From Mobula hypostoma (Eukaryota), in assembly GCF_963921235.1 (NCBI RefSeq), contig NC_086108.1, positions 65,722,001 to 65,786,000 on the forward strand: a stretch of DNA of 64,000 nucleotides, given 5' to 3'. The position numbers and the translations under genes were made by a program. Below the pieces are notes generated by a model. It was not told the DNA's origin. It saw only the letters and a list, made by a program, of their open reading frames with translations, and did no database searches. Positions 6,691 through 64,000 of this stretch are shown here, one piece after another. The stretch's first letter is position 1. Each line of letters opens with the position of its first letter.

Positions 6691-7700
6691 TCCTGTCAAG
6701 TTGTTGGCCAATACCTTTCGTAATTATAATGGACTATGTTCAGTTTGTCTAAATGGTAGCTGGAGCCAGGCCATGCAAAGATTGTGCGCTCATTACGTGA
6801 CCAAAGGAAACGTGTAAGCCTATTTCCTGGTTTACTTCACTCACTACACATCGGGTCCTGTACTCTAAAACGTCAAAGGATTCAGTATTAGAGCCCACTG
6901 TGCCATTCCACAGCCTTGTCTGGCTTCCTGAAACAAACGCTGGTCTTTTTACCCTCACATACGCTACAGTAACGGGGATTGTGCGGAAGTAGCAGGATAG
7001 TTATCCAACAATCCTTAACGAATTTATTTGCAGCCGGACCGTCCAGAAGTTACTGCTCTGAACTCGTTTGCATTTAATTCGGGTTTAAGTTACGTACTGG
7101 AAATGACATTGTGGTGAGAGAGGTTAGTTCCTCGCAACAGTAAACAAGGTCCAAGTCCCGTTGCGTCCATGAATAGAAGTAGTGACCAGCCGAGAGACAC
7201 AAACCAATGCGTACTTCACCTATTCTGAATCACCCCCTCCCTGAAACTTCCCCGTGCATGGTTCTAAATTTAGGCTGGACAGAGTAATAAACACGATAAT
7301 GAAACCCGAACGGGAAATATCCTTCCGATGGATTTCAATATCTTCTTTCCGGGAAAAGTACACAGCGCGGATCCCATCACTGGCTTTAAACTGCTAAAGG
7401 ATGAGTGGTTTTATTGTTCGTTAAGGTCCTACAATGTTTCGAAACAAAAGACTTCTATTTGAGTGTTAAATCGCTGATAGTTTAATTTTCAGAGGTAACG
7501 AAACACTCGTGGAACTGTTTCATGTAATTTGTGTAATATGATTCACCTGTCTTTGTTAACAGACATTTCACAATGGTAATACGTTCAGAGACTTGGCAAA
7601 GCCGTATGTTTACACCGAAAGCTGGAATTTGAGTTTCGTTCAGTTTCGGAGCAATGCTAATCGCCGGGTTTACAGGTTAAATTAAACGGTGTTTACTTAC

Positions 7701-11700: not shown

Positions 11701-12431
11701 TTCTTGGATGGTATGCTTTCTCCCGGGTGCCAGGGTCCAGGATATCTTGGATTGAGTTCTCAGCATTCTTAACAGCCAGAAGTGGTGGGCCATGTAATGA
11801 CATGGGTAGGATGAGTGACAATATTCTGTATGGGGAGTTCAGGGAGTTAGGTGCTAAGTTAAAGGGCAGAACCTCCATGGTTGTGATCTCAAGATTGCTA
11901 GTGAAGCTAGAACTAGGAAGATTATACGGTTTAGTACAGTATAAGCAGCTGGTGTAGGAGAGAGGGCATAAGATATTTGAATCACTGGGTTCTCTTCCTG
12001 GGAGGTGGGACCTGCACAGACGGGACAGTTTGCACCTGAACTGGAGGAGGACTACTACCCTAGTGGGAAGGTTTATTGATGCTGCACAGTGGGGTTTGAA
12101 CTAGAGTTGCAGGGGGATGGGAACCAGAGAGCCAGAATAGTGAGTGGAGAGGTTGTGGAGTCAAATGTTGGTAAGACCTCAGACAAAGTTAGGAATCAAA
12201 ATGTTGGGCATGGTGTAACTAGTGTCCTGAGCTACATATATTTCAATGCAAGAAGTATCGTTGGAGAGGAGGATGATGGTGCTGAATATGAAGTAGCTGG
12301 TTTACAAACAGGGATAATAAGGAGAGGCTGTTGATAGGCAAAATTGCAGTCAACAGGATGAGTTGGAACATAAAGGGTGGACAAGATCAAAAAGGGTGAA
12401 TGCAGGACTGAAAGTGTTATATTTGAATGTG

Positions 12432-12588
12432 CAAACACAAGGAAATCTGCAGATGCTAGAAATTCAAGCAACACACACAAAAAATGCTGACCCACATCAG
12501 GACGAAGGGTCTCGGCCTGAAATGTCGACCAACCTCTTCCTATAGATGCTGCCTGGCCTGCTGTGTTCACCAGCATTTTTTGTGTGTG
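12432..12588. mobile_element. Penelope-derived short fold-back element with degenerate hammerhead motif, inserted in CR1
   Basis: Matches the 3' end of the Penelope copy at 18440-18575. 13-bp TSD ATATTTGAATG(T/C)G at 12419-12431 and 12589-12601. Confidence 0.8.
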
Positions 12589-13390
12589 ATATTTGAATGC
12601 GTGCAGTTTACGGAATAAAGTGGATTAACTTGTAGCAGATTTACAGATTGGCAGGTATGATGTTGTAGGCATCACTGAATCATGGATTAAGGAAGATTAT
12701 AGCTGGGAGCTTAATATCCAAGGATAAACATTGTATCGAAAGGATAGGCATGAAGGCAGAGGGGATGGTGTTGCTCTGTTGGATAAAAAATTAAATAAAA
12801 CTATTAGAAAGAGGTAATATAGGGTCAGAAGGCATTGAATCATTGTGGATAGAGCTAAGGGTAAAAAGACACTGAAGCAAGGGTAAAAAGACACTGATGG
12901 GATTTGTATATAGACCCCCAAACAATAGTTAGGATTACAAGGGGACATAGAAAATGCATACCAAAAGGGCAATAGTCATGGGGATTTCAATATGCGGGTA
13001 GATCGGGAAAATCAGGTTGGTGCTGGATTCCAGGAGGAGAAATTTCTGGAGTGCCTATGAGATGGCTTTTTAGAGCGGCTCGTGGTTGAGCCCGCTACGG
13101 GATCAGCTATTCTGGACTGGGTGTTCAGCAATGAACTAAAATTGATTAGAGAGCTTAAGGTAAAAAAAAATCCTTAAGGGCAAGGGATCATAAGATGATT
13201 TAATTCACCCTGAAATTCGAGAAGGAGAAGCTAAAGTCAGATGTCTCTGTACTACAGTAGAGAATGGGAATTGCAGAGACATGAGAGCAGAGTTGGCCAG
13301 AATTGATTGGTAAGGAACACTGGCAGGAATGATAGCAGAGCCGTAATGCCTGGAATTTCTGGAAGCAATTCAGAAGGATCGGGATATATG

Positions 13391-13825: not shown

Positions 13826-16609
13826 GATACGTATATATATATATATATATATATCCCAAAGAGGAAGAAGTATCCTAAAGGAAAGATGACACAACTATGG
13901 TTAACTAGAGAAGTCAAAGCCAACAGAAAAGCCAAAGGGAGTGCATATAATAGAGGAAAAATTAGTGGGAAGTTAGCGGATTGGGAAGCTTTTAAAAACC
14001 AACAAAAGGCAACTAAAAAAAAGTCATTAAGCAGGTAAAGATGGAATATGAAAGTAAGCTAGCCCATAATATTAGAGAGACTACCAAAAGTTTCCTCAGA
14101 TACAGAAAGTGTAAAAGAGAGGCGAGAGTGGATATCGAACTGCTGGAAAACGATGCTGAGATGTGGTAATGGGCGAACAACGAAGTGGCGGACAAACTGA
14201 ATAATTATTTTGCATCAATCTTCAACGTGGAAGATACTAGCAGTATGGTGGAAGTCCCAGTTGTCAGGGGTCATGAAGTGTGTGAAGTTAACATTGATAG
14301 AGAGAAGGTTCTTGGGAAACTAAAAGGTCTGAAGGTAGATAAGTCACCTGGACAAAATGGTGTACACCCCAGGGTTCTAAAAGGGGTAGCCGAAGATATT
14401 GTGGCAGCATTAATAATGATCTTTCAGGAATCACTAGATCCTGGAATGATTCTGGAAGTCCAGAAAATTGCAAATTTCACTCCACTCTTCAAGAAGGCCA
14501 GTTAGTCCGATCTCTGTGGTTGGAAAGATGTTGTAGTTGATTATTAAGGATGAAGGCTCAGGGTACTTAGAGGCACATGATAAAATAAGCCATAGTCATC
14601 ATGGTTTCCTCAAGGGAAAATCTTGCCTGACTAATCTGCTGGAATTCTTTGAAGAAATAAGAAGCAGGCTAGACAAAGGAGAGTCGCTTGCTGTTGTGTA
14701 CTTGGATTTTCAGAAGGCCTTTGACAAGGTGCCACATATGAGGCTACTTAACAAGCTACAAGCCCATGGTATTACATGGAACATTCCATGGATAAAGCAG
14801 TGGCTGATTGGCAAGAGGCAAAGAATAGGAGGGAACTGAGCCTTTTCTGGTTGGCTTCCAGTGACTAATGTGTTCCACAGGGATCCGTGTTGGGACCGAT
14901 TCTTTTTACATTATTTGTCAATGATTCGGATGATGGAATTCATGGCTTTTTTTGCAAAGTTTGCAGACGATATAAAGGTAGATGGAGGGTCAGGTAGTCC
15001 TGAGGAAGTAGAGAGGCTCTAGAAGGACCGAGACAGATTAGGAGAATGTACAAAGTGGCAGACGGAATACAGTGTCGGGAAGTGTATAGTCATACACTTT
15101 AGTAGAAGAAATGAAAGTGTTGACTATTTTCTAAATGGAGAGAAAATCCAAGAAACTGAGGTACAAAGGGACTTGGGAGTCCTCGTGCAGGATTCCCTAA
15201 AGGTTAATTTGCAGCTTGAGTCTGTGATGAGGAAGGCAAATGCAATGTTAGCATTCATTTCAAGAGGACTAGAATATTAAAGCAAGGATATAAAGTTGAG
15301 ACCTATAAAACACTGGTGAGGCCTCACTTGGAGTATTATGAGCAGTGTTGAGCCCCTTATCTTAGAAAGTATGTGTGGAAACTGGAGAGGGTTCAAAGGA
15401 GGTTCACAAAAATAATTCCAGGATTGAATGGCTTGTCATATGAAGAGCGTTCGATGGCTCTGGGCCTGTATTCACTAGAATTCAGAGGAACGAGGGGTGA
15501 CCTCAGTGACACCTATTGAATAGTGAAGCACCTTGATAGAGTGGATGCGGGGAGGATGTTTCATATGGTGGGAGAGTCTAAGGCCGGAGGACACAATGTC
15601 AGAATAGAGGGGCACCCTTTCAGAACAGAATGAGGGGGAATTTCTTTAGCCAGAGTGTGGTAAATCTGTGGAATTCTTTGCCACAAGCAGCTGTGGAGGC
15701 CAAGTCTTTATGTTCAGTATACTTAAGGCAGAGGTTGATAGATTCTGCATTGCTCAGGGCATGAAGGTATGTGGGGAGAATTCAGGAGATTGGAGCTGAG
15801 AGAACAACTGGATCAGCCATGAGGAAATGGCGGAGCAGACTTGACGGGCCAAATGGCCTAACTCTGCTCCTATATCTTATGGTCTCATGATCCTTCTTCT
15901 CTTGCTATATCATTGCAACAGCGAATGGCATTGCCTTCGAGTACTTCTGAGCCAAGCTCTAAGCTCGACAGCACATGTTGTGCAACAAACAGGAGGAGCC
16001 CAGGCTTTGGCCTGGTCGCCAGTTTTACACCCAAAGTAGAGTTCATAGGCTTTCTTAATAAGAGAAGTCATGCTCCGTCTTTGAGATTTAAGCGTACACT
16101 CACGACAAATATAACCAAATATATTTGGGTCATGGCTGTTGCAACATTGGCGAGACATTTTGCTATCACAAATACAGCTAAAAATACAATTGCTATATTA
16201 TAATGAGTACATACAATACGCTATGCATGTAGAGCATGCACATCAACTTGATAGTAAACTGATATACATGTAAACACAATGAATCGAACAGTGTGTGTGT
16301 GTGATGCTTTTATAGCCTTTCTAAAACCTGTCCTGCCATGCAGCATCCACCATGCCTAAGCATACACAGGCATGCCTGCACAAGGTAGAAAACTTTTCAG
16401 CTTACATTGTGGGCAACATTTTAATTGAATTGAATTATGAATTGAAATAACAAATATTGGTGATTTCAAAAAAATGGCATGTGATATTGGCATTTCATGA
16501 TCAGCGGCCAAAATCCATCAGATACACCTGAAAGTATTCAAGAAGCAAGATCTTTGTTGTCCAGTGTAATTTCAACCCGTAAAACTGTCAAAGCATTCTG
16601 AGTGTATTA

Positions 16610-18575
16610 ACTCTGAGGATCTCCCATATACTGCCACCAACCTCATAGCTCCCTCACCCCACACCCCCCGTTTCTACCTCCAATGTAAGATCCATAAACC
16701 TGCCTGTCCAGTTGGACCCATTGTTTCTGCTTGTTTCTGCCCAACTGAACTTATATCTGAATACCTCAACTCAGTTTTATCCCCCAGTGGTCCAGTCCCT
16801 TCCTACCTACATCCGTGACACTTCATACGCTCTTAATCTTTTCAATTATTTCAAGTTCCCTGGCCCTGGTCATCTTATTTTCACTATGGACGTCTAGTCC
16901 CTATACAGCTCCACCCCCCACCAGGAAGGCTTCAAAGCTCTCTGTTTCTTTCTAGACACCAGACCCAACCAGTTCCCCTCCACCACCGCTCTCCTCCATC
17001 TGGCAGAACTTGTCCTCACTCTTAATAATTTCTCCAACTTCCTTCAAACACAAGGGGTAGCCATGGGCACTAGCATGGGTTCCAGCTATACCTGTCTCTT
17101 GGTGGGCTATGTGGAACAGTCTACATTCCAAGCCTACACCGGTACCACTCCCCAACTTTTCCTATGCTACATTGGCGACTGTATTGGTGCTGCTTCCTGC
17201 ACTCATGGGGAGCTCGTCAACTTTCTGACACCTCCCTTCCCTTTCTCAATCTCTCTGTCTATATCTCTGGAGACAGCTTATCTACTGATGTCTATTATAA
17301 ACCCATTGATTCTCACAACTACCTGAACAATACCTCTTCCCATCCAGTTACTTGTAAAACACCATCCCCTTCACTCAATTCCTCCATCTCCACCACACCT
17401 GCCCTCAATATGAGGTGTGTCATTTGAGAACAAAGGAGGTGTTTGCCTTCTTCAAAGAAAGAGGCTTCCCTTCCTCCACCATCAATGCTACCCTCAACTG
17501 CATCTCCTCCATTTCACGCATGTCTGCCCTCACTCTATCCTCCTGCCACCCTACCAGGGATAGGGTTCCTCTTGTCCTCATCTACCACCCCACCAGCCTC
17601 TTTATCCAACAGGTAATTCTTTGTAACTTCTGCCATCTCCAGCGGCATCCTGCTGCCATCTCAAGCACACCCTTTCCTCCCTCCATTTCTGCTTTCTGTG
17701 GGGATTGCTCCCCATACGACTCCCTTGTTCGTTCATCCCTCCCCACCGATCTCCTTCCTGGTACTTATCCTTGCAAGTGGAACAAGTGCTACACCTGCCC
17801 CTACACCTCCTCCCTCACTACCATTCAGTGCCCCAAACAGTCCTTCCAGGTGAGGCAACACTTCACCTCTGTCTGTTGGGGTTATCTACTGTATCTGGTG
17901 CTCTTTGTGTGACCTCCTGTTTATCAGTGAGACCTGGTGTAGATTGAGAGATCGCTTCGCTGAGCATCTACGCTCCGTCTGCCAGAAAAAGTGGAATCTC
18001 CCAGTGGCCACACATTTTAATTCCACTTCCCATTCCCATTCCAACATGTCAGTCCATGGCCTCCTCTACCATTGTGGTGAGATCACACTCAGGTTGGAGG
18101 AGCAACACCTTATATTCCATCTGGGTAGCCTCTAGCCTGATGGCATGAACATCGATTTCTCAAACTTCCAGTAATGCCCCCCCTTCACCAGATCCCATTC
18201 CCATTTCCCTCTTTCACCATATCCTCTTATCTCCTCATCACCTCCCTCAGGTGCTCCTCTCCCTTTTCTTTCTTCCATCCTCTCCTATCAGATTCCCCCT
18301 TCTTCAGCCCTGTATCTCTTTCACCAATCAACTTCCCAGCTCTTCACTTCACCCTCCCTCCCCCCAGTTTCACTTATCACCTTGAGGTTCTTCCTTCCCT
18401 CCACCCACGTTCTTACACTGACTCCTCATCTTTTTTTTCCAGTTCTGATGAACGTCTCATCCCGAAATGTAGACCGGACTCTTTTCCACAGATGCTGCCT
18501 GGCCTGCTGAGTTCCTCTGGCATGCTGTGTGTGTTGCTCGGATTTCCAGCATCTGCAGATTTTCTCTTGTTTGTG
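16610..18575 (+). mobile_element. Penelope-like retroelement (RT and GIY-YIG endonuclease), 5'-truncated, degraded
   Basis: PRFYLQCKIHKP, YIRDTSYAL, FTMDV, GVAMGTSMG, TDVYYKPIDSHNYL, FFKERGFP, CKWNKCYTC, ISETWCRLRDRFAEHL, VATHFN. Pyrimidine-rich 3' region ends in the terminal repeat with CTGATGA at 18445-18451. Confidence 0.9.
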
Positions 18576-24740: not shown

Positions 24741-24804
24741 CTTTAGACACCTTCATTCCCAATCCGTTCAATTCATGAAAATTATCGTCTTCCTGCAATT
24801 TGCC

Positions 24805-25020
24805 GGAGAAACTCAGCAGGCCAGGCAACATCTGTGGAAAGGAATAAACAGGTGATGTTTCGGGCCGAGATGCTTCATTAGGTCCTGAAGAAGGGTCTCG
24901 GTCCAAAACGTCGACTGTTTACTCTTTTCCATTGGTGCTGCCTGGCCTGCTGAATTCCTCCTGCATTTTGTGTGTGTTACTTTGGATTTCCAGCATCTAC
25001 AGATTTTCTTGTGTTTTTGC
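24805..25020. mobile_element. Penelope-derived fold-back element, degenerate hammerhead motifs
   Basis: Inverted arms centred at ~24880: 'gtttcgggccgagatgcttcattag-gtc-ctgaagaagggtctcggtccaaaacgtcgactg'. Confidence 0.8.
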
Positions 25021-26259: not shown

Positions 26260-28005
26260 TCAAAGTTCAAAGTAAATTTATTATCGAAGTAAATATATGT
26301 GACCATATACACCCTGAGATTCATTTTCTTGTGGGCATTCACAGTAAATACAAAGAAACACAATAGAACCACAGAAAGACTGTCCCAACAGGACAAACAA
26401 CTATTGTGCAAAAGTCAACAAACTGTGCAAATCCAAAAGAAGTAATAATAATAATCATAAACAATTAATATCGAGAACATGAGACGAAGAGTCCTTCAAA
26501 GTGATTCCACAGGTCATGGGAACAGTTTAGTAATGAGGTGAGTGAAGTTGTCCCCTCTGGTTCAAGAGCCTGATGGCTGAGGGGTAGTAACTGTTCCCGA
26601 ACCTGGTGATGTGGGACCTGAGGCTCCTGTACCTTCTTCCAGATGGCAGCAGTGAGAAAGGAGCATAGCCTGAATGGTGGGGATCCTTGATGATGGATGC
26701 TGGTTTCCTGTGACAGTGCTCCATGTAGCTGTGCTCAATGGCGGGGAGGGCTTTACCCATGAAGTATCCACTACCTTTTGTCGGCTTTTCTATTCAAGGT
26801 TATTGGTGTTTCCATACCAGGCTGTGATGCAACCAGTCAGTGTGCAGTCCACCGTACATCTATAGAAGTTTGTCAAAGTTTCAGATGACATGCCGAACCT
26901 TCGCAAACTTCTAAGAAAGCAGAGGTGCTGTCGTATTTACTTTGTAATGGCACTTACATGCTGGATCCAGGACAGAATCCTCTGAAAGCCAGTGGATGTA
27001 GTGTACCTGGACTTTCAGAAAGCCTTTGATAAAGTTCCACATAGGAGATTAGTGGGCAAAATTAGGGCACATGGTATTGGGGGCAGAGTACTGACATGGA
27101 TTGAAAATTGGCTGGCTGACAGAAAACAAAGAGTAGTGATTAATGGCTCCCTTTCGGAATGGCAGGCGGTGACCAGTGGGGTACCGCAAGGTTCAGTGCT
27201 GGGACCGCAGCTGTTTACAATATATATTGATGATTTAGGTGAGGGAATTAAAAGTAACATTAACAAATTTGCCAATGACACAAAGCTGGGTGGCAGTGTG
27301 AAATGTGAGGACCCAGGTCAGAGCCTCTGAAATTATAACACTGAGGAATTTAGTTTTGGACCCTCTCCATCTCTGATCCCTCGATGAGGGTTGACTCACG
27401 AACCTTTGGTTTCCTCTACCTGAAGTCAATAATCAGCTCCCTGGTCCTTGCTGACATTGAGCGAGAAGTTTTTGTTGTACAACCATTCAGCCAAATTTTT
27501 AGACTCCGACATACTGATTCACACCACACTTGATTTGGCCAACGACAGTGGTGTCAACAGCAAACTTATTATGGCATTGGAGCTGTGCTTCGCCTCATAG
27601 TCATGAGTATAAATCAAGTAGAGCGGGGTGCTAAGCACACAACCTTGTGGTGCACTTGTGCTAATTGTAATTGTGGAGAAGATGTTGCCAATCTGAGTGA
27701 AGGATTCAAGGGTCCAGTTGCTCAAGAAGGTATTCAAGCCTGGGACTTGAAAATTATTGATTAGGTTCGAGGGAATGATAGTATTAAATGCTGAGCTATA
27801 GTCAATGAAGACCATCCTGATATATGCATCTTCACTGTCCAGATGTCCCAGGGTTGAATGAAGAGCCAATGAAATGGCATCTGAAGTTGATATGGCAAGA
27901 GCTGATATGTTTCATCACCGGCCCCTCAAAGCACTTCATCACAATGGATGTAAGTGGTACTGGATGATATTCACTGAGGCAGGTTACCATGTTCTTGGGC
28001 ATCAC
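26260..28005 (-). mobile_element. Rex1-type LINE (RT to 3' end), interrupted by a CR1 fragment
   Basis: YIRMVFIDYSSAFNTIIP, SAPQGCVLS and IIKDPHHSGYAPFSLLPSGRRYRS; tail near 26260-26285. Confidence 0.85.
26988..27308 (+). mobile_element. Internal CR1 RT fragment nested in the Rex1 copy
   Basis: ORF 26992-27330 [15 protein letters not shown]...[19 protein letters not shown]; no 3' tail. Confidence 0.9.
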
Positions 28006-29039: not shown

Positions 29040-29792
29040 CATAGTCATAGTATAGTCATAGTCATACTTTATTGATCCCGAGGGAAATTGGTTTTCGTTA
29101 CGGTTGCACCATAAATAATTAAATAGTAATATGTAAATTATGCCAGGAAATAAGTCCAGGACCAGCCTATTGGCTCAGGGTGTCTGACCCTCCAAGGGAG
29201 GAGCTGTGAAGTTTGATGGCCACAGGCAGGAATGACTTCCTATGACGCTCAGTGTTGCATCTCGGTGGAATGAGTCTCTGGCTGAATGTACTCCTGTGCC
29301 CAACCAATCCATTATGTAGTGGATGGGAGACATTGTCCAAGATGGCATGCAACTTGGACAGCATCCTCTTTTCAGACACCACCGTCAGAGAGTCCAGTTC
29401 CATTCCCACAACATCACTGGCCTTACGAATGAGTTTGTTGATTCTGTTGGTGTCTGCTACCCTCAGCCTGCTGCTGTAGCACACAACAGCAAACATGATT
29501 GCACTGGCCACCACAGACTCGTAGAACATCCTCAGCATCATCCGACAGATGTTAAAGGACCTCAGTCTCCTCAGGAAATAGAGACAGCTCTGACCCTGCT
29601 TGTAGACAGCCTCAGTGTTCTTTGACCAGTCCAGTTTATTGTCAATACGTATCCCCAGGTATTTGTAATCAACACCATGTCCACAATGACCCCCTGGATG
29701 GAAACAGGGGTCAGCGGTACCTTAGCCCTCCTCAGGTCTACCACCAGCTCCTTAGTCTTTTTCACATTAAGCTGCAGATAATTCTGCTCACA
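29040..29792 (-). mobile_element. Rex1-type LINE 3' part (same family as 1-985)
   Basis: WCEQNYLQLNVKKTKELVVD and MFYESVVASAIMFAVVC...HRKSFLPVAIKL; (CATAGT)n tail at ~29040-29066. Confidence 0.85.
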
Positions 29793-31829: not shown

Positions 31830-32570
31830 GCACATAAACAGCTCCTCCACCGTGAGAGTTAGGAACACCAAGTTTCTGGGAGTGTGCATCACCTGGTCCG
31901 TCAACACCACCCTTTCATTCAAGGATGCATAGCAGCGTATCCACTTCCTGATGAAACTGAGTCGAGCAAGGCTCTCCCCCGCAATTCCGTTCTAACCAGT
32001 CTTTACAGGAGCACCATTGAGAGTGTTCTCACCAGCTGCAACACCATATGGTTTGGAAATTGCAAGGCATCTGACTGCAAGGCCCTACAAAGGATCGTGA
32101 GGACTGCTGAGAGGATCATCAGGACCTCTCTTGCACCCATCCAAGATGTTTACCGGGAGGGCTGTGTATGCAGGGCCCTTAACATTGTCACGAATCACTC
32201 CCATCTGTCCCACAATCTCTTTAAACCCCTACCACTGGGCAGGAGGTACCATAGCATTAGGACAAGGACTGTTAGGATGGGAAACAGTTTCTTCCCCCAG
32301 GCTGTGAGACTACTGATCTTCCTGACACCACCCAGGTCTCATCACATATGAAGCAACAGTAGTGTTATGCTGTTTACTTTTTGAATTAATACATTTTATG
32401 CTAAATGTCAATCTTCTGGAATATATTTTATTTTATTTATTTGTGGTAGTATTACTTTATGTGTTGTGTATGACTTAAATGTATTGTGTTCTACACCTCA
32501 GTCCAGAGAGATGTTTCCTTTGGTGGTATACACGTATTTGGTTGAATGATGCTGACCTTGCACTTGGACT
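31830..32570 (+). mobile_element. Rex1-type LINE 3' part
   Basis: YRSTIESVLTSCNTIWFG...LQRIVRTAERII...NSFFPQAVRLL. Confidence 0.8.
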
Positions 32571-37119: not shown

Positions 37120-40100
37120 ATAATGATGTACAAAAGGGACAGGTTACACCTAAACCGGAGGGGGTCCAATATCCTTGCAGGAAGGTTGGTAAGAGTTGAT
37201 TGTCAGGTATTAAACTCATTTGGCGGGGGGGGGGGTGGTGGGAATAAGAGTGATGGTGCTGAAGATGAGGTAGTTGGTTTACAAACAAAGGCAATGTGTA
37301 GTGAGACTCCTAACAAGGAGAGAATGATGATAGGGCAAAATTGCAGTCAACGGGATGAGCAGCAATGAAAAAGATGAACGATATCGAAAAGGGGTGAATG
37401 CAGAACCGAAGGTGTTATATATGAATGCATGCAGTATACGGAATAAAGTAGATGAACTTGTAGCACAGATACAGATGTAGGCACCACTGAATCATGGCTG
37501 AAAGAAGATTATAGCTGGGAGCTAAATGTCCAAGGATACACATTGTATCAAAAGGACAGATAGGAAAGCAGAAGGGGTAGTGTTGCTCTGTTGGTAAAAA
37601 ATGAAATCAAACCAATAGAAAGATGTGACATAGGGTTGGAAGGTATTGAATCATTGTGGGATAGAGCTAAGGAACTGCAAGGGTAAAAGGACCACGATGG
37701 GAGTTATATACAGACCCCCGTACAGTAGCATAATGTAGTTTACAAATTACAACAGGTGATAGAAAGTACATGCCAAAAGGGCAATGTAATAATCACCCTG
37801 GGGTTTTTAATATGTAGGCAGATTGGGAAAATCAGGTTGGTGCTAAATCCCAAGAGGGGTCATTTCTAGAATGCCGATGAGATGGCTTTATAGAGCAGCT
37901 CATAGATGAGCACTTTAAGAGATCAGCTATTCTGGATTGGGTGTTGTGCAATGAACCAGAACCAGAATTGATTAGAGAGCTTGAGGTAAAAGAACACCTA
38001 GGGGAGAGTGATCATAATATGATCAAATTCACCCTGAAATTTGAGAAGAAAGAACTGAAGGCAGATGAATCAGTATTACAGTGGAGTAAAAAGAATTACA
38101 GAGGCATGAGAAAGGAGTTGGCCAGAATTGGCTGGAAAAGAACACTTGCAGGGATGACAGCAGAACAGCAATAGCTGGTATATCTAGAAGCAATTTGGAA
38201 GGCACAGGATATATACATCTCAAAGAAGAAGTATTCTAAAGGTAAGGTGACACACCTGTAGCTAACAAGAGAAGTCAAAGACAACAGAAAGCCAAAGAAG
38301 GGCATATAACAGAGCAAAATTAGAGGAAAATTAGGGGATTGGAAACTTTTAAAAACCAACAGATAACAGCTAAAAAAGTCACTCAGAAGTAAAGATGGAA
38401 TATGAAGCCAATTATATTAAAGAGGATAGCAAAAGTTTCTTCAGATACATTAAGTGTAAAAGAGAGGCGAGAGTGGGTATCGAACCACTGGGAAATGATG
38501 CTGGAGAGGTAGTAATGGGGGATGAAGAAATAGCAGACAAACTGAATAAATATTTTGCATCAGTCTTCACTGTGGAAGACACTAGCAGTATGGTGCAAGT
38601 TCTAGGAGTCAGGGGGCATGAGTGTATGAAGTTACCATTACAAGGGAGAAGATTCTTGAGAAACTGAAGGGTCGATGGATAGGTTAGCTAGACCAGATGG
38701 TGTACACCCAAGGGTTTTGAAAGAGATGGCTGAAGATATTGTGGAGGCATTAGTAATGATTTTTTGAGAATTAATAGATTCTGGAATGGTTCTGAAAGAT
38801 TGGAAAGTTGCAAATGTTGCTCCATTCTTCAAGAAGGGAGAGAGATAGAGGAAAGAAAATTATAGACCAGTTAGCCTGACCTCAGTGTAGGAAGATGTTG
38901 GAGTCGATTGTTAAGGATGCGGTTTACAGGTGCTTGAAGGTGTATGATAAAATAGGCCATGTTTCCTCAGCATGGTTTCCTCAAGGGAAAATCACACCTG
39001 GCTAATCTGTTGGAATTTATTGATAGCAAGCAGGATAGACAAAGGAGAATCAGTTGAAGTTGTTGTCTTGGATTCTCACAAGGCCTTGAACAAGGTGCGA
39101 TGCTTAATATGATATTGCAGGCCCATGATATTACAGGGAAGATTCTAGCATGGATAAAGTAATGTCTGATTGGCAGCAGGCAAAGAGTTGGAACAAAGGG
39201 AGCCTTTTCTGACTGGCTGCTGGTGACTAGTGGTGTTCCACAGCAGCCTGTGTTGGGACCAATTCTTTTTATGTTATATGATAATGAATTGGATGATGAA
39301 ATTGATAGCTTTGTTGAAAAGTTTGCAGATGATATGAAAATAAGTGGAGAGTCAGGTAGTTTTGAAGAAGTAGAGAGGCTACAGGAGGACTTAGATAGAT
39401 TAGGAGAATGGGCAGTGAGGTGGCAGATAGAATACAGTGACAGGAAGTGTATGGTCATACAAATCGTTAGAAGAAATGAAAGGGTTGACTGTTTACTAAA
39501 TTGAAAGAAAATACAAAAAACTGAGACTCAAAGAGACTTGGGAGTCTTGTGCAGGATTCCCTAGTGGATATTTTGCAGTTTGAGTCGGTGGTGAGAAAGG
39601 CAAATGTGATGTTAGAATTCATTTCAAGAGGACTAGAATATAAAAGCAAGGATATAATGTTGACACTTTATAAAGCACTGGTGAGGCCTCACTCAGAGTA
39701 TTGTGAGCAGTTTTGGGCCTGTTAGCATAGAAAGGACATGCTAAAGCTGGCGAGGGTTCAACAGAGGTTCACAAAAATGATTCCAGGATTGAACAGCTAG
39801 TCATTTGAGGAGCATTTCATGGCTTTGGACTTGTATTCACTAGAATCTGGAAGAATGAGGGGTGACTTCAATGAAACCTATCAAATGGTGGAAGTCCTTG
39901 AAAGAGTGGACGTGGAGGGGATGTTTCCTTTGGTGGGAGAGCCTAAGACCAGAGGTCACAGCATCAGAATAGAAGGGCATCCTTTCAGAACGGAGAGGAG
40001 AAAGAATTTCTTTAGCCAGAATGTGGTTAATTTGTGGAATTCTTTGCCACAGGCAGCTATTGAAGCCAAGTCTTTATGTATATTTAAGGTAGATGTTGAT

Positions 40101-40240
40101 AGATTCATGATTGGTCAAGGCATGAAGAGATACAAGAAGAAGGCAGGAGATTGGGGCTGAGAGGGAAAATGGATCAGCAGTGATGAAATGGGCCAAATGG
40201 ACCAATTCTGCTTCTATATCTTTTGGTCTTATGGTCTTAT
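37120..40240 (+). mobile_element. CR1 LINE (end of ORF1 through ORF2 and 3' end), degraded
   Basis: DRLHLNRRGSNILAGR, HLGESDHNMIKF, KFADDMKI, NFFSQNVVNLWNSLP; 'ggtcttatggtctta' tail. Confidence 0.9.
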
Positions 40241-40440: not shown

Positions 40441-41210
40441 CATGGGATAAGGTGCCAGTGATAAGCCTTGTGGATGACAAACTTTCCAGATCCTTTTGCC
40501 AGATGCAGACTCCAGAAACTGTAGTGCCCTGTTACAGGTGTGCTACAGCTACAGGGCCATTCACTCTGGACGCAGGAAGGAAACTGAACCATGTGGACAT
40601 AGTTGGTTCTGTAATGGATGGAAGATTGGGGTGGCAGGATGGGCACTTGATGAGGGCGAGGAGGACTTGATCTCCTGAGGAGCAAGCCCTGGATTTAGAG
40701 GTTGTTACCAAGGATCTGGATTTGAGGGCATTGGGTCAGTGTGCATACTACTGGTGGCAGTGGGTGCCTTCTGATGATCAGGATCAATTATTGGAGGTGA
40801 GGATGGAAGACTCCAGTGGGAGCTCTGAAGTGTTTGGACATTTGAATCTCTGGACATCAGTGTATCAGAAAGAGAGCTAAATCATTGCTGAGGGTTAATT
40901 GATTAATGACATCAGTGGGTGGGGCAGGGGCAGAATGCTGGGGTGGTGAGAGGCAAGGCAAAGGTTCAAAGGGAAGATTAATGAGCCCATTGATAAATTG
41001 TGTATCTGATCCATTTGTGCCTATCAGACTAAACCCTGAGGCAGAGCTGTTGGTCTTTCCTTAATTGAGATAAGTAAATGAATATAGCATTGTGCGCCAA
41101 CTTAGAATTCTATGTTGTGCAGGTCTTTTGGAGCATTTCTCAAACCCACAACAACTGTCTCAGAGGTTAGAGGGATGCCAACTTAACCACAGCTGACACA
41201 CAAGGAGATG

Positions 41211-41430
41211 CAAACAACAGGAATTCTGCAGATGCTGGAAATTCAAGCAACACACATCAAAGTTGCTGGTTGAACACAGCAGGCCAAGCAGCATCTATAG
41301 GAAGAGGCGCAGTCGACGTTTCAGGCCGAGACCCTTCGTCAGGACTGACGAAGGGTCTCGGCCTGAAACGTCGACTGCGCCTCTTCCTATAGATGCTGCT
41401 TGGCCTGCTGCGTTCAACCAGCAACTTTGA
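41211..41430. mobile_element. Young Penelope-derived fold-back element (86-bp arms, 1 mismatch)
   Basis: Arms at 41257-41342 and 41345-41430. 12-bp TSD CACAAGGAGATG at 41199-41210 and 41431-41442. Confidence 0.9.
41310..41347 (-). ncRNA. Minimal type-I hammerhead ribozyme motif (Penelope type)
   Basis: Minus strand reads CAGUC-CUGACGA-AGG-GUCUCGG-CCU-GAAA-CG-UC^GACUG: helix I (5 bp), intact core, helix II (3 bp), palindromic ACGU in place of helix III, GUC cleavage triplet. Confidence 0.75.
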
Positions 41431-43018
41431 CACAAGGAGATGTATGGGTTGCTGGCTCTCAGGTTGGGAAAGGATGAAGAGAGTGTGGTCAGCTATTCAC
41501 TCCATGGTGTTGTGCTAAACAACAGCTGTTATAGGCATTTGTTTCCTGGATGGAGATGAGCTGATGTAGGTCTGGAGCTGGATGATGTTGACACAGAATA
41601 AACAGTCTAGTGATGGTCTGATAATGGGATCCAAAACTCAATATATGGTCAAGTGTAACAGTCTGGTTTTGATCCAGATAGTTGCCTAGGAGGAAATACA
41701 AGAGAATGCAAATGCTGGAGCATGGAACAAAGAAACGGAACACTGGAAAAACTCAGCAGGTCAAGCAGCATCTCTCGAGGTGAAAGGTGAAAGTTGATGT
41801 TATGGATTAGCATGCTGCATCAGGATTAAATCCAAAATATCAATGTACACATTTGCCTCCTAAGGTGTTGCTTGACCTCCTGAGTTCTTCCAGTATCCTT
41901 TTTTTTCGTTCTAATTGCCTCAGAGAAGGTTGGAATCAGAAAGTGGCGAGTAATATTTATGACTAGGCCAAAATACAATGGCTTCATTCTTCCCAATATT
42001 TAGTTAAAAGAATTTTTCCTCAATTGTCATTGAATATTGAGCAAATGTATAACAACCTACAGAAAATGAAAGGGTCACAAAAGGTGGTGAAGAGAACATC
42101 TCCAGTGAAGACTGGCACATATTTGTGAGTTGGTATATGTTCAAGGGCCTTGGAGATGAAAAGAAGTTTGGAGAGAATACTAGTTTATATAGGTTGTACA
42201 AATTATGCAGATTGATCCAGAGTTAATTTTATATTGAAAATAATGAGAATAAGCTTGTGACTTCTACTGCAGATCACTGAAAGGAACAATTATTTTTATC
42301 AGAGTGTCAGTAACTAAAGTTGATGAAATCCTAGGACAGGCTTTGTTTTCTTGAACAATGCTAGTTATTTTTAACAAAGCCCTCAGAAAACTAACAATGA
42401 TTTCTGTTACTTTTTGGTATTGTTGCTAATTGTGTATGTAGTAACAGGTGTTCAGTCAATGACAGTGGCTCCATTCTTCACAATGTTTAGTCAGAAGAAT
42501 ATTGTGCTCAGTTGTTAGTTGATATTGCATGAATGTCCACAGACAAGGGAAGCGTCAAGGAAGTTGGTGCAGAGCAGAGGTCAGCTCCTCCACTTAAGAA
42601 GCCTATATTTCAAAAAAATGCTTAGGAAAACTTTAATTCTTATTTGCTGAAAGAGCAGCTAAAAGAATGTTAGCAAAAGTAATTGATTTTCATACTGTTA
42701 ATATTTCTGGAAAAAGACAGTAACTGTTTGGTAGTGCATATAGTAAGTGGCTTAAAAACGTGTATTGGTATCATCCTCTTGGATAATTTGAAAGGACTTT
42801 TTCACCACAAGTTTCTAATTTAACTAGAGTGAGCAAGTGCGATACTGGGTCTCCTGCGCCTGTTACTCTAAGGCTGTGGGATAGAGAGACTCAAAATATT
42901 CCATTTCCGTTATTTCTTTGATGACCTAAACAACAGAAATAGACAAATAATGATAAAAATTCTGAGAAAGCAATGTCAATTAAAAGTGTAGTACTTTTTT
43001 CTTCTTCTTGAAATAAAT

Positions 43019-51039: not shown

Positions 51040-52288
51040 TAAGTTAAATTGTATACAATTTATTAAAAGTAAATTCTTGGTAATATAACATTGCATATAT
51101 TTTACAACAATACGTGATATACATACTGCACGCAAACTTTGCAGCCACATTAGGCTTTACAAAGGATACCAGTGAGAATCGCCCTGTCAGAATGTACATT
51201 GTAGTAGTTAACAGGTTTCGTTACCCAATCTCTGCTAACGCAGAAACAAAAAGAAACACATACAAAATATACTGAAAGTGCAGCGTGAATTATATACTAT
51301 GGTATTCACAATACATATAGCAGGCAAAAAGCGAACGTGGAAAATAAGGAGTGTACCATGCCTTTTATAGTTTAAAATTAACAACACATTGTCCATCGAA
51401 TTATTAAATACATGAATTTCTCTTTTGCAGAATGGTAAAGTACTTAGGAAAAATGTCACAATCTGTACCCATAAAAATGCCTGATATTCTAGTTGTTCCG
51501 TTGCGCTTAAGTATTGAGCACATGGAATAAATAATAATCATTTTCCATAAGAAATAGAAAACAGGGACCTGTAAATAGCTGCAACAACTCTGATAATACA
51601 CAGAAAGTGGTTCATTGTTCACTCAAACCACGAAAATATACAAAATAGTTATCCTAGGAAATTTAATTCTTCAAAGATTTAAACCCTCGGTTTCTTTTAT
51701 TACTTAAATTACAATATAGCTCAACAATTCACGTGTTTTGTTTTTATTTTGCTTCGTCTTTTAATTTATGAGCTTCCTTATTTCCGCTTAAAGTCCTGGG
51801 ATCCCTTTTCGGACGCCCAAATTTTAATGTAAAACAAAGTACCTCTCCCCTGCTCAGTGCTTCTTTGATAAATGATTAGTGTGTCCCGGCTGGTGTGTAT
51901 GAACTGGTTGTGTTGATATAAAAAGCCTAACATGGGGGAAAATTTTACTGTTTTAAATAAAACTAATCCGGTCGTTTTAGGTTTTCCATGACGTAGCCGC
52001 CTTTTCTCTCCATAGACGGTGCTCGAAGCTCGTACAATATTTACATGTACCACGATTTTAGGAAATATTACATTGTCTTTAAACAGATTCATTGATAAAT
52101 CCGGTAAAATTTAAATCCGAAAGGATAGTCATTTTGTTTTTTTGTACCTGAAAATGTTAGTGATACAGAAAATATCAGAAAATAAAACGCTAATCGATTC
52201 GGCAGGCGGTAGTAAGAGTAACAGTCTGTGTTATCTTTCAGCTGCAATTTTCCATTCCCCTTGTCGGCTCTTTTTTTTTGCAAGGATA
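51040..52288 (-). other. TAL1: TAL1 3' UTR with candidate poly(A) signal AATAAA at 51059-51064
   Basis: AT-rich non-repetitive sequence following the stop codon. TTTATT on plus at 51059-51064; other AATAAA hexamers occur near 51.7 kb, so the end is uncertain. Confidence 0.5.
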
Positions 52289-52710
52289 TCACCGTTGTCC
52301 ATTGACATCTGGAGGAAGTATGGAGTGATGGTGGTTTCCGTGTCGTGACTCGAGGTGATCGTGCTCTTCGCTTAGACTTCCCGGGCTTCCTGTTCCATCA
52401 AAACAGCTTCCACAGCTCGAGTCTGGAGACATCTCCTGCATGTCATCGCTGGGCAGCCTCGTACTGTCCGCCTCTTTAATCTGTAGCCCGCGCTGTTCGC
52501 CCTCCTGTTCTTGATCACTCAGGAGTTTGGCCAAGAAATTTATATATTTCATGGCTAGGCGCAGGATCTCGTTCTTGCTCAGTTTCTTATCGGGTGGGTG
52601 TGTCGGGATCAGTTTGCGAAGTTCAGCAAAGGCGCCATTGACATTCTGTTGCCTCCACCGCTCCCTGCTGTTTGTGAAAATCCGCCGGACGATTTTGGGC
52701 TGCGTGGTAC
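52289..52710 (-). CDS. TAL1: TAL1/SCL last coding exon (bHLH and C-terminus)
   Basis: [56 protein letters not shown], followed by SPDSSCGS. Acceptor TTTTTTTTTGCTTCCAG| at 52711/52710, phase 1; stop TGA at 52289. Confidence 0.97.
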
Positions 52711-53201
52711 CTGGAAGCAAAAAAAAACCTGGTTTTAACCAAATGCGTCTCAGACATGTGGAAGTGGTCGCCATGACTTAGAGAAATTTAAGGAACTTTA
52801 TATTAAAGCCGAACGGTCTGTCGTGACTGTCGGATTATGTGCGCGCACACGTGGCCCCGATTCTATCCCGTGCTTTTTCGGCGTAAATGCACAGAATGTA
52901 TATGTGAAAACCTGTTGACAGGCGTGAGCGACAAGGAAACAAAATAGGGGCTGGCTGAGATAGATTTTAGATGACTGTTTTATTAAAGCACGACTTTATC
53001 CTCCTACTGTAGTGCTACACGACATTAACTATGAGCCTTGTAGCTTCCGCAGTTTTCCCCTTTGCAAAATAATGCACGACAGACTACAAGACATTTCCTA
53101 CGGCAGTCGCAGTCAGGTGCCTAGCAACTGTATCAACACTCGAGCAGCGATGTGTACGGTTAAAAGATGTGGTAAATCGAAGGCTGAGTGATTGTCCATA
53201 C

Positions 53202-53281: not shown

Positions 53282-53710
53282 CTGGTGTAGCCATTAGAAC
53301 AAGAAAGGGACATTAGTGATGAGAATCCGGAATCTTATTTATTAAACGTCGACAATCATTTAAAAGAACATGTTCCGAGTAAATAAAATCTAATCGCACA
53401 GGTTATTATTTCTTGTATCGATCAACATAATCATGAATAGCGTACATCTGACAGTAAAGATTCGGTGACAAAATTACCACGTCTAAAGCAGTCCTTATTG
53501 AATGATCATTACAACGAATAGCATTTTATAAATCACAGTTTGCATTAACTCAATTTATCATCATTTGCTAATCGGAAAGCAATTTTGAACGCGGGTCACA
53601 TCAATTTGCAATTCAATTGTTGTCATGTACTTGTTAAGCTCCACGATCTTAAAAAAAACTTAGAAAAAATGGGGTTTTCGGATCTAACCAGCTTCCACAA
53701 CGAGACTGAC

Positions 53711-54168
53711 CTGCTTAGAAGAGGCAGGGTCTGATACTGGGACGTGCTGTTGTACAGCATCGCTCTGGCTGCAGGCAGAGTGAGGTGAGCTGCCGTTAAC
53801 TGGACCATCCGATTCTCACTGACTGGGCTCTGAAGAGTCAGAGGCACCGGGGGTCTTGACAACTCGGTGGTCGGCACTAAATGAGTAAACGTGCCTTTCT
53901 GATCACTCTCATTTATAGGCTGGACCCCTCTTTGCATCAGGTTTATGACGGGCACTTCCGATAGGGGATCAGGGGAGTCGTGCCTTGTTTCCTTGGAAAC
54001 CCCATCACTTGACGCAGTTCGCTGCTCAGCTTGGACCCGGTGTCCTTCAGTGGATTGGTCTGCAGGCTCGCTCGTGTTTTCCGGTGCCTGGCTGGGGGAA
54101 TCTTTCTGAACGGGGCTCAGGTCATCGCTGTCATTTTCACCATGATCCAGTCCGACCTTTTCCATCAT
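53711..54168 (-). CDS. TAL1: TAL1/SCL first coding exon
   Basis: MMEK start, EVPVINL, VPTTELSRPP, RMVQL, ARAMLY. Donor AG|GTCAGT at 53711/53710, phase 2. Exon acceptor TGTTTCTTTCAG| at 54247/54246. 458+80+422 = 960 nt, i.e. 319 aa plus stop. Confidence 0.93.
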
Positions 54169-54762
54169 CGTGTTGAACAGCGGAAATCGTCAATGTCTGA
54201 GCTGAGTTCGCGTCAAAGGTTGGAAGAAATGCCGAAGCAACTTCATCTGAAAGAAACATTGCCGTAAGACACAGGGGGAAACAGCAATCGCGAAAAAGGC
54301 GACCTCAATTATTTTTTTTGCACAATAAAGTAAACGCTCTGGCGACTTCGCCAGTACATTTACTGACTTTATAGTCCAACGATCTTTAGGCGCATTAAAT
54401 GGGAGTAACTACGAATATTATCACCAGCTGTACAAAATATCAAAGCCGCTGAAAATGATTTAAGCGTTCTTGAGGTTACAAATATTGATCTGAAGCTAAA
54501 TATTCAACACAAGCGAATGCAATATACAAATTAACAGTTGCAATTTGCTTTAAAGGGGGAAAAAAGAAGTCAAGTTTCCGTCCGCTATGCGCATCAAAAC
54601 TGAATGTAAATATAAACTTGGTCATTTCGCCAAGGTGAAAATGTGAAGCGATGCGAACTATTCGTGTGCATTTGCTTCAATCGAATTAAATAAGAAACTG
54701 CTGTATTCTCCCATTTATAAAACGCATTATATTTCATTACACACCCAAAGTCAAACACTCAC

Positions 54763-59500: not shown

Positions 59501-60700
59501 GCTAAGTGAATAATTGTGGTATATTTTGGAAATGCACATTTCTCTGCCAGCATGGTCAGTTAAGTATTTAAATTGCTTTGGATTGTAAACAAATAGGTGG
59601 CAGTAACTTGAGTTGTGTTGGGATTCCTCAGTGTTTGTTGAAGTGCACTCATTCAGGAAAGTGGATTTCCTACGTAGAGCTGGTGCTCCATCACACTCCT
59701 GACTTAAGCCTTATAGATACTGGAAATGCATTGGGGTGTGAGGAGATGAATCACTCACTCCAATATACCCGCCTCGAACCACCTCTTGTTGCTAAAGCCT
59801 TTATGTAGTTCAGTTTTACAGTCATGGAGTAATTCAGCTTGGAAATAGACCCTTTAGCCTTTAGCCCAACTTGCCCATGCTGACTATAGTGCTCAATAAG
59901 CTAGTCCCATTTGCCCTCCTCTGGAACTGCTTGGCCAGAGATGTGGCTAGTTTTGAAGCACCAGCCATCAATGCCATAGACTGGATATCATCTAATTCCC
60001 TCTGTTATGTTCAATCCATCACTCTCAAACTTTATCTATAACCAATGAAAATCTTTGGAAGAAACTGCAATGGGTCTTCCATTCACTGAACATGGTTGCA
60101 AATTCTTCATCCTTTTCTTCAGCACACACATGCTGGGCTCTGCAGTAGCTTGGATTGTCAATGCTCTTGGATCCATCTCCTCTTCCCTTTAGCTGATTCA
60201 TTTTCCATCACAGTTCATGACTGATGTGGCAGCTTTATCTCATTCATTAATTGTGTGAATGCTTGGTTCTGTCTATTGCATGGTGCGTTTACTCTTTATC
60301 ATAGAAATAGTTCTGCATTGTTATCTCATAAGATTGACTCTCCATTTTTACAAAACCCTGATGCTGCTCCAAGTATGTTCTTTCACCCTCCTCATTGAAC
60401 CAGATGGGTTTTGGCTTGCTAGAAATGGCAATGTGAAGGCTATTCCAGGCCATCAGGTGGTCTACATTTTTGCTGCTGCAGATAGTCAACACCTCCTTAA
60501 GGTGCTAGGAAATCAGTTGTGAATGGTTCCCAATTACCATATTAGTTCATACAACACAATGGAGTTAGTGTAATGCTGAGACTTGTGCTGCAATGGAATG
60601 AATATCTTTGCCACCTCACAGGACTGTGGCCCATTCTATTTGTATTACTTTCAAAGCTGAACTTTAACATCTCAGTCATAATCACAAGTAATTTTATTTG

Positions 60701-60869
60701 AAGAGGTGCAGTCGACGTTTCAGGCCGAGACCCTTCATCCTGATGAAGGGTCTCGGCCTGAAACGTTGACTGCACCTCTTCCTAGAGATGCTGCCTGGCC
60801 TGCTGCGTTCACCAGCAACTTTTATGTGTGTTGCTTGAATTTCCAGCATCTGCAGAATTCCTGTTGTTT
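60701..60869. mobile_element. Young Penelope-derived fold-back element with hammerhead core
   Basis: 40-bp inverted arms at 60700-60739 and 60742-60781; CTGATGA at 60740-60746, then GAAACGTT. TSD TAATTTTATTTG at 60689-60700 and 60870-60881. Confidence 0.88.
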
Positions 60870-61820: not shown

Positions 61821-64000
61821 TGTAGGATAACATAATTGTGAGAAATGTACATAACTCACACCACAGACATTGAGTTGGGGTTTTGCTTTAAGGGGCTTGT
61901 TTGACATAATTACATTTTTACATAAAAAAGTTTTTTAGCGTGGTTTTCTCTCCCTCAGTAAGCCTGGTCAACAAGGCCCCTAACACAAGGATGCCCATGG
62001 CTGTGAAACAGACATCGGTGGACCTGTACTTCTACCGTGCTGACTTTGGTAGGAATGCTGGGAAGTGCTGACTGCCATGCAGCTTTAACAGCGCCAGTGC
62101 ATCGGGACCTCAGAGGTCTGTGAACTCCATGGGTTCCAGCTGCCAGGGTCATCTACTGTTCATTATGGACACCCTTTTAGGGCGATGTTTCCTGTGTGAC
62201 TTGGGTGCTCAAGTGAGTGTTGCCTATTGATGAAAAGGCAAAGAGTGACGAAACCTCACTGGAAACTGTCAACGGCAGTAAGATCCAGACTTATGGGGCA
62301 CAACAGGTGAATTTCTGCTTCAGTGGACAACGCTATACGTTGGGCCTCATCTGGCTAAAGTGCCTAGTCCTCTGCTCGGTGCAGATTTCTGTGTGTCCAA
62401 GGACTATGAGTCGATCTTAAGAACTGCTGGCTTGTGGTTGTCAAGGACTTTGGGTTGTTACCCTGCTCCCCCAGTAAGCTCCCCACAACAACTCTGTCAA
62501 GCACATGAGAGCTTACTCGACCGCTGGGTGAATTCCCAGACCTCACCAAGCCCATATTCCCCACTATAGTTGCAAAACATGGGGTTCAACACCACATTTC
62601 CACAACTGTCCCACTAGTTCATATATGCATGTTTAGACTAGACCCAGAAAATCTGGCAACTGTGAAGGCTGAGTTACCAACATGTAAAGACTTGGCATTG
62701 TATGCCAGTCGAATAGCCCCTGGGCTTCACCCCTCCATATGGTTCCTAAGTCTGATGGTGGTTGCTGCCCTTGTGGTGATTACCGATGCCTTAATGAGAC
62801 CACTACCTTGGAGATTGTCACCCAGTCCTACTCATTCAAGACCTTTCGGCACGTATGATGGAAAGTCAATTTTTTTCAAAGTCAATCCAGTTAGGGGCTA
62901 CTATTGGGTGCCTGTCTGTTCAAAGGATATTCCCAAAACAGCTGTGATAACCCCATTTGGCCTTTTTGAGTTTCTGTGTATGCTGTTTGGATTGAAAATT
63001 GCAGCACAGACTTTCCAATGGCTGATGAACTCTGTATATAAGACAGATTTTCTTTTTGTTTACCTGGATGACATACTTGTCGCCAGTGCGTCTAAATCCG
63101 AACACGTATCTCATCTCCATGCACTTTTCCAACACTTAAGCCGACACGGGTTGATTATTAACCCTGCTAAATGCCAGTTTGGGTTGTCAACCATTGACTT
63201 TCTCAGCTATCACATTTCTGCAGAAGGTGCAAAGCCCCTCCCGTCAAAGATAGCTTTCCCGTCACCCCATACTCCTAAAAAAACTACAGGAGTTTTTAGG
63301 CATAGTGAATTTCTATTACTGCTTCATTCCATGAGCAGCTGAACCTATGCTGCCCCTGTAGAGTGTACTAATCAAGTGTTTGACTGGTCAGGGGATATAA
63401 CCCAGGCATTTGATGATACCAAGCGAGTTCTTTCTAACGCGACCCTAATGGCATATCAACTCCCCAATGCATCCATAGCCATCATAACTGAAGCCTCAGA
63501 CTATGCTACGGGTGCTGTGCATGAGCGGCTAGTCAGAGGTGTGTGGCAACTGCTCACCTTCTTCAGTCAGCAGCTCTGTCTACCCAAAAGGAAGTACAGC
63601 ATGTTTGACCATGAGCTTCTCGGTCTCTTATCTGGCTGTCTGCTATTTTCATTTTCTTCCAGAGGGTCACCATTTCACAGTGTTCATTGACTACAAAACC
63701 CCTCGTGCACGTGATGGCCAAATTAGTAGACCCTTGGTCTGCATGGCAGCAATGCCACCTGGCCAATTTAACAATGGATGTACAACATATCAAGGGTAAA
63801 AATAATACCATGGCCAGTTGCTTCTCACAGCCAGCCACTGAGACTGTATACATAAGGGTTGACTATGCCGACATGGCAGCTGACCAAGTTCCTGACCCAG
63901 AGGTCCTGTCTTACTGAACAGCAGACATGAGCATGCAATTGGCTGACATTAAGTTTGGGAAGCTGGGGTTTCCCTCCTGTGTGATTTCTCGCCTTCCTCC
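61821..64000 (+). mobile_element. Gypsy/Ty3 LTR retrotransposon remnant (protease, RT, RNase H), running off the window end
   Basis: FLCDLGAQVSV (protease), DIPKTAVITPFGLFEF...FVYLDDILVAS (RT), TEASDYATGAV...RKYSMFDHELL (RNase H). Frameshifted and gag largely deleted; possible LTR remnant starting TG at 61821. Confidence 0.9.

Follow-up and report, generated by a model that had tools for sequence, protein, structure and literature searches.

Minimal hammerhead ribozymes (min-HHRs) are found in the pLTRs of metazoan Penelope-like elements (PLEs), where single copies are reported not to cleave in vitro and dimers to cleave weakly (Cervera and De la Pena 2014, PMC4209133). Insertions of endonuclease-bearing (EN+) PLEs are described as containing an inverted 5'-truncated copy, a one-sided tail of 30-40 bp and a target-site duplication (TSD) (PMC8557442, PMC3846280), and a CX2-5CxxC linker between the reverse transcriptase (RT) and endonuclease (EN) defines the elements of Neptune/Nematis type (PMC8557442). 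The protein of the Anolis carolinensis element Poseidon nicks and extends both strands, using two tail-matching internal starts on unprocessed RNA (Frangieh et al. 2024, PMC11167929), and cleavage by the anole hammerhead needed the protein of the element (PMC11167929). The literature already describes minimal hammerheads in pLTRs as well as inverted truncated copies, tails and TSDs, and the family-level statistics of arm ends given below are the sole part of the present analysis without a counterpart in the literature searched.

The window analysed here, a stretch of 64,000 nucleotides from Mobula hypostoma, contains this architecture in reduced form. A 219-bp insertion at 41211-41429 is flanked by a 13-bp TSD, with the left copy at 41198-41210 and the right copy at 41430-41442 of the plus strand, as seen both by direct-repeat comparison and from contigs with the empty site. 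In three related organisms single contigs join position 41197 or 41195 directly to 41430, and because these contigs run from the left flank straight to 41430 the 219 bp represent a lineage-specific insertion, with the repeat as its genuine TSD. A reading made from the sequence alone, before the present analysis, had described a young palindromic insertion with an 86-bp inverted repeat; the TSD and the empty site in three relatives bear out the first part, and the second is matched by arms at 41257-41342 and 41345-41430 that are 99% identical. The arms of the insertion agree at 85 of 86 bases and have a rare 1-base insertion in common.

In element numbering, where q1 is 41347 and the scissile bond lies between q33 and q34, the long arm (41211-41346, minus strand) is a Penelope-like element end from q2 to q137 that comprises the hammerhead, a downstream hairpin and the tail, and it is 97.8% identical to the tandem element in locus L191. 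Comparison of the arms places the 46-nt tail (41211-41256, minus strand) on the long arm only. The short arm (41345-41429, plus strand) is a second copy of the element end, q6 to q90, that has the hammerhead core without the 5' strand of helix I, and a scan of the window with a hammerhead descriptor gave no match for this arm on the plus strand. Comparison with native copies shows that 2 nt of microhomology at 41345-41346 join the arms head to head. The head-to-head arms, tail at one end, TSD and junction palindrome are those described for EN+ PLE insertions, from which this copy differs in being the bare minimum, 136 + 85 bases with no open reading frame (ORF), and in a tail of 46 nt (PMC8557442, PMC3846280). 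It is very probable that the locus is a recent, lineage-specific 219-bp insertion of two head-to-head Penelope-like stubs, with a passenger hammerhead that is predicted to be locked in a hairpin and is likely inactive. The window has a second young two-armed copy at 60700-60869 (arms of 40 and 132 nt, 94-95%). It is bordered at 60689 and 60870 by a direct repeat of 8 bp or more, and its position is some 6.5 kb upstream of the TAL1 exon that spans 53623-54189. Three further intervals, 12430-12598, 24797-25016 and 41725-41911, contain older palindromic sequences that are copies or relatives of this end of the element, at 70-86% identity.

The hammerhead itself is a minimal type I motif on the minus strand at 41310-41347, at the centre of the 86-bp inverted repeat, identified by its core, a descriptor scan and folding. 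The 38 nucleotides proposed for it match the sequence from 41347 to 41310 letter for letter, the core elements named (CUGACGA, GAAA, the ACGU palindrome and GUC) are all intact, and the predicted scissile bond falls at 41315/41314, as had been claimed. Five pairs of the proposed 5-bp helix I are present here, but the fifth is supplied by the inversion junction and is natively U·G: the inverted arm contributes the C of CAGUC, and since the native base at q1 is U (T in the DNA) in 78 of 80 arms, the perfect fifth pair, with its junction-derived outermost base, is a by-product of the junction. The 3-bp helix II that had been drawn does not hold, its predicted pair probability being about 0.02 in the isolated 38-mer. 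That 38-mer is predicted to form helix I together with a 4-bp helix II in another register (G·U, G-C, G-C, U·G, with a 4-nt loop; predicted probability 0.88-0.97), which leaves one A unpaired just before the helix and is the only register in which C/U variation at position 11.1 retains pairing.

The descriptor scan of the whole window returned this motif as its sole match, and a similar scan of 642 kb of loci selected for the Penelope-like family returned 166 matches, with 0 in the reversed control. No hammerhead match was obtained from Rfam, a check that had been proposed for the motif, either at the gathering threshold or with E relaxed to 10, and the palindrome gave nothing but below-threshold miRNA hairpin matches; Rfam hammerhead models expect a helix III. 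The features that characterise a min-HHR were looked for individually, and the extra base between positions 9 and 10.1, the 10.1-11.1 pair (G·U here, G-C in 15 of the first 100 matches listed) and the palindromic 15.2-16.2 (ACGU) are all present. Like the published min-HHRs, the motif has type I topology, a helix I of 4-5 bp, no helix III, a palindromic 15.2-16.2 pair and one unpaired base between 9 and 10.1, and it occurs in thousands of dispersed copies, with pairs close together on opposite strands (PMC4209133). It departs from the min-HHRs of Schistosoma, where helix II is 7-8 bp, in a helix II of 4 bp, and from the published min-HHRs in the U that this subfamily has at position 11.1 (15 of the first 100 matches listed have C instead) (PMC4209133).

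The Penelope-type origin proposed for the minimal hammerhead is supported by sister copies that extend into a coding region. Those in loci L009, L187 and L188 contain a single ORF with RT and GIY-YIG domains, which the window copy does not have. This upstream ORF yields RVT_1 and C-terminal GIY-YIG matches (the GIY-YIG above the Pfam cut-off in L009, the RVT_1 below it at E 1e-5 to 1e-4) and contains a DKG motif and a CxxxxCxxC zinc-finger-like linker. Judged by its sequence, the parent is a Penelope-like element with an endonuclease, which the linker definition makes one of Neptune/Nematis type, and the EN+ PLE hallmarks that were looked for, namely a tandem forming pLTRs, an inverted copy, a tail and a TSD, are present. 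A near-complete tandem unit with a 3,518-bp period and some frameshifts is found at L191:2197-5850 (G000:C21); there q137 reads on into the next ORF, and the first ATG of the long frame lies at about q174. In L191 helix I is directly preceded by a pyrimidine tract and then CAG and TAG, an arrangement that resembles a 3' splice site. The window also holds an older, 5'-truncated 2-kb copy of the parent element at 16611-18573 (76%), with broken RT and EN remnants and a decayed hammerhead at its end.

The family is abundant. Exact matches to the 33-nt hammerhead core number 48,862 in the 3.48-Gb genome, one per 71 kb, with 0 in the reversed control, which exceeds the 4,000 reported for the coelacanth and 9,000 for Xenopus (PMC4209133). 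Matches to the 3' end of the element number 34,850 genome-wide, and matches to q34-q60 with loose first letters number 110,837, a figure taken as the count of arms, in which the degenerate letters included intact copies.

The anatomy of these copies was examined in 93 of the first 100 3'-end matches listed (6 ran off the fetched stretch), all located within the initial 6.3 Mb of a single contig and selected by their 3' end only; arm ends were taken from BLAST alignments, in which microhomology can shift them by a few bases. Long arms have their outer end at q134-138 in all 87 of 87 copies. Of 87 copies that could be scored, 49 have an inverted arm next to them, and the outer ends of these short arms fall at q88-113 in 42 of 47. 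A TSD of at least 9 bp is found in 62 of the 93, with the mode at 13-15 bp (44 of those copies), and the junctions vary between copies. From this we infer a cycle in which the GIY-YIG nuclease of the element would nick both target strands 13 bp apart and reverse transcription would be primed at each nick, at one of two internal RNA sites (about q137 and q90-105); both cDNAs would then traverse the uncut hammerhead and halt at its 5' edge, where the RNA likely begins, and the two cDNA ends would be joined via the 2-nt microhomology. Such a cycle would resemble that of Poseidon in its two internal RT starts some 100-135 nt past the hammerhead with the tail between them, in the nicking and extension of both strands, and in uncut RNA as the main template (PMC11167929). 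In Poseidon the ORF runs from stem II and the start sites lie within it; here they would lie in the 5' UTR, because in L191 the long frame has its first ATG at about q174, and the family, unlike Poseidon, has a linker of Neptune/Nematis type (PMC11167929).

The halt at the 5' edge of the hammerhead rests on where arms end. Of 136 arm 5' ends, 63 fall in q-27 to q10, a cluster that includes both arms of the 41211-41429 insertion, and 20 fall in q1-5 (4 per base), compared with 0.15-0.7 per base in q11-q100 and about 0.01-0.05 beyond q-50. The ends peak at the 5' edge of helix I, which lies 30 bases away from the cut site. Our preferred reading is that RNA would start here at initiator-like motifs and that this would account for the pile-up at q1-5. 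By the initiator consensus, TCAGTT and TTAGTC would serve as such motifs and would put +1 at q-2 and q2; the commonest arm end, counted by eye, is q2 (11, versus 7 each at q1, q3 and q4). For an RNA starting at q1-q2 the hammerhead helices are predicted with p of about 0.5, versus 0.001 when the upstream pyrimidine tract is included. Taken as a whole, the proposal that the 5' edge is the RNA start, that uncut RNA is copied from both nicks at two 5' UTR sites into 100-135-nt run-off cDNAs joined head to head, that only the 5' ribozyme copy folds, and that a small minority of templates (about 0.2-0.3% of arms) are cut in vivo, is offered tentatively and falls a little short of an even chance.

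A competing explanation has a barrier stopping the arms at this edge, whether a ribozyme that is folded or bound by protein, the pyrimidine tract, or a 3' splice site with its branch point. The tract and the CAG and TAG after it stand immediately before helix I, an intron of Drosophila virilis Penelope is reported to end where helix I begins on its 5' side (Cervera and De la Pena, PMC4209133), and ends are dispersed across q-27 to q10 rather than gathered on one base. As regards splicing, 94 distinct upstream contexts contained 0 same-strand junctions from the upstream element onto q0-q4 (two 'fw' rows are point variants), and no GT..AG joint landed at q0-q4 among the 15 joints listed of 318. 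Those results, together with initiator-like motifs that would put +1 at q-2 and q2 and with q2 as the commonest end by eye, leave a barrier as a possible explanation that we would place at roughly a third of the weight. Splicing at the acceptor-like site before helix I, considered in its own right, received no support, no spliced junction being present among the contexts and joints inspected. Neither twin priming in PLEs nor an accumulation of arm ends at the edge of the hammerhead is described in the literature searched (subscription papers and supplements lay outside it), and the main text of the Poseidon study does not mention 5' ends accumulating there (PMC11167929).

Cleavage of the template would instead place arm ends at the cut site. 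About 99% of arms, including both arms of the 41211-41429 insertion, run through it, and templates are therefore mostly uncut. Apparent 5' ends genome-wide number 571 at q34, 254 at q31, 89 at q33, 209 at q35 and 178 at q37. When 30 of the q34 loci were sorted by script, 11 were microhomology joins, 4 were local changes in longer copies and 15 were clean; inspection by eye reassigned 3 more to microhomology and showed that a single tandem duplication with its start at q34 accounts for 2 rows. The clean loci are 13 of 20 at q35 (11 by eye) and 15 of 20 at q37. The residual excess at q34 is about 2-fold, less once CpG scarcity in the flanks is allowed for, or about 0.2-0.3% of arms after the 27/64 capture rate of the search pattern, and it neither shows nor excludes rare cleavage. 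The tandem duplication, in L167/L168 (G000:C1:61736934-61736991), is of 31 nt, with both units starting exactly at q34. In L158, L159 and L160 the same junction occurs three times, an inverted arm ending at q3, one extra base, and the other arm from q34, which may be a recurrent join or copies of one event.

Covariation in helices I and II across genomic copies had been suggested as a further check, and within the Penelope-like family it was negative, with no excess beyond transition bias among neutrally decaying copies. Changes on both sides of one pair occur genome-wide in 110 copies for helix II and 115 for helix I, scattered, and 45 of the first 100 helix II double changes listed are A-T by hand count, versus 47.5 expected if the two sides changed independently. 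This result is no test of the ribozyme, because dead copies of one young family decay neutrally.

Whether the two arms were primed separately, or one was folded back upon itself, can also be addressed from the family. Fold-back, in which one cDNA (or antisense RNA) is self-primed at the junction and copied back, was put forward in PMC3846280, and would explain why the arms here are identical at 85 of 86 bases and have a rare 1-base insertion in common, and why paired arms across the family are concordant at 156 of 173 diagnostic sites (49% when shuffled). At non-diagnostic sites paired arms differ by 2.6%. Against it, in 19 of 47 copies the inverted arm overshoots the 5' end of the long arm by more than 15 nt, yet is without the tail; in these neither arm is a copy of the other, because each holds sequence missing from its partner. 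The far ends of the short arms cluster at q88-113, and 3 of 46 pairs are discordant at two or more subfamily sites. The two arms thus look separately primed, each from one of two opposite nicks, with one RNA or a sibling of it as the usual template; in this the end statistics point away from the self-priming proposal of PMC3846280 and towards two priming events, and fold-back as the general route is unlikely. For the 41211-41429 copy alone it could still apply, since its arms differ at only 1 of 86 bases.

A third explanation takes the palindrome as a non-autonomous unit that propagates itself, MITE-like or retrozyme-like, and is copied whole. Short palindromes with TSDs do recur, three of them in the window, and the insertion resembles non-LTR retrozymes in being non-coding, in its type I hammerhead and in its derivation from a PLE pLTR (bioRxiv 10.64898/2026.07.22.740005). 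Retrozymes, on the other hand, are tandem direct repeats, where here there is a single head-to-head pair with ends off the cut site (bioRxiv 10.64898/2026.07.22.740005); a retrozyme is defined by two or more units in tandem, every one of them with its hammerhead complete, and the insertion contains one complete motif. Junctions and arm lengths vary and grade into kilobase arms with ORF sequence, and tandem hammerhead monomers of the retrozyme kind are absent. The self-propagating reading is largely refuted and very unlikely to be correct.

The insertion lies in the neighbourhood of TAL1. The last coding exon of TAL1, encoding the bHLH (HLH match; best PDB match TAL1, E 1e-38), is on the minus strand at 52289-52777, with its stop codon at 52289, 10.9 kb from the insertion, and an exon of MAP17/PDZK1IP1 lies about 2.7 kb beyond the window start. 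Since both exons are on the minus strand, the sequence-only reading was right to give the hammerhead the same sense as TAL1/PDZK1IP1. Its placement of the motif about 10 kb past the TAL1 poly(A) site is made plausible by AATAAA sites at 51748, 51701, 51064, 50146, 49703 and 48082. In contigs of one run taken to be RNA, no cover was obtained for the unique flanks of the insertion, a result that weighs neither for nor against expression. The same reading expected the surrounding hairpin to compete with the ribozyme fold, and folding agrees: the whole insert is predicted to form one hairpin of -187 kcal/mol, with probabilities of 0.000 for helices I and II, and the predicted cost of the active fold is about 61 kcal/mol in the insert versus 4-5 in a single arm. 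As the antisense arm is made first on the TAL1 strand, it would zip up the ribozyme as it is transcribed.

An exact core would be found by chance within 10.9 kb in 7% of cases on the sense strand and 14% on either strand, or 29% if all 110,837 arms are counted. Because such proximity is expected by chance and the site is empty in three relatives, there is no case for a role in TAL1; the same two observations and the predicted sequestration in the hairpin leave a special TAL1 link, or activity at the locus, unsupported. It is therefore most improbable that the hammerhead acts in TAL1 read-through RNA to aid transcription end or insulate PDZK1IP1, for although it has the sense of both genes, an intact core and, as an isolated 38-mer, predicted helices I and II, it would be sequestered, it is missing from three relatives, its position is accounted for by chance, and it would require a dimer partner, single minimal hammerheads being uncleaved in vitro (PMC4209133). 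The interval between TAL1 and PDZK1IP1 also holds many LINE RT fragments (4930-6723, 14170-14839, 26986-27911, 29167-29721, 31863-32351 and 38967-40160). By their motifs these look CR1/L2-like. Broken RT, RNase H-like and further pol-like frames at 62509-63917 are presumably of LTR retrotransposon type.

Finding an intact hammerhead close to any one gene of this genome is what chance predicts, and the TAL1-side locus is in itself ordinary. The interest lies in the family, where some 100,000 young arms provide base-level statistics on the starts and stops of reverse transcription. These statistics argue for two primings rather than fold-back, and they cap the share of ribozyme-cut templates at well under 1%. 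The family is thus useful for the study of the Penelope insertion cycle and of the job of its hammerhead. If the RNA does start at the hammerhead edge, then tens of thousands of stubs would stand as a record of the Penelope insertion mode.
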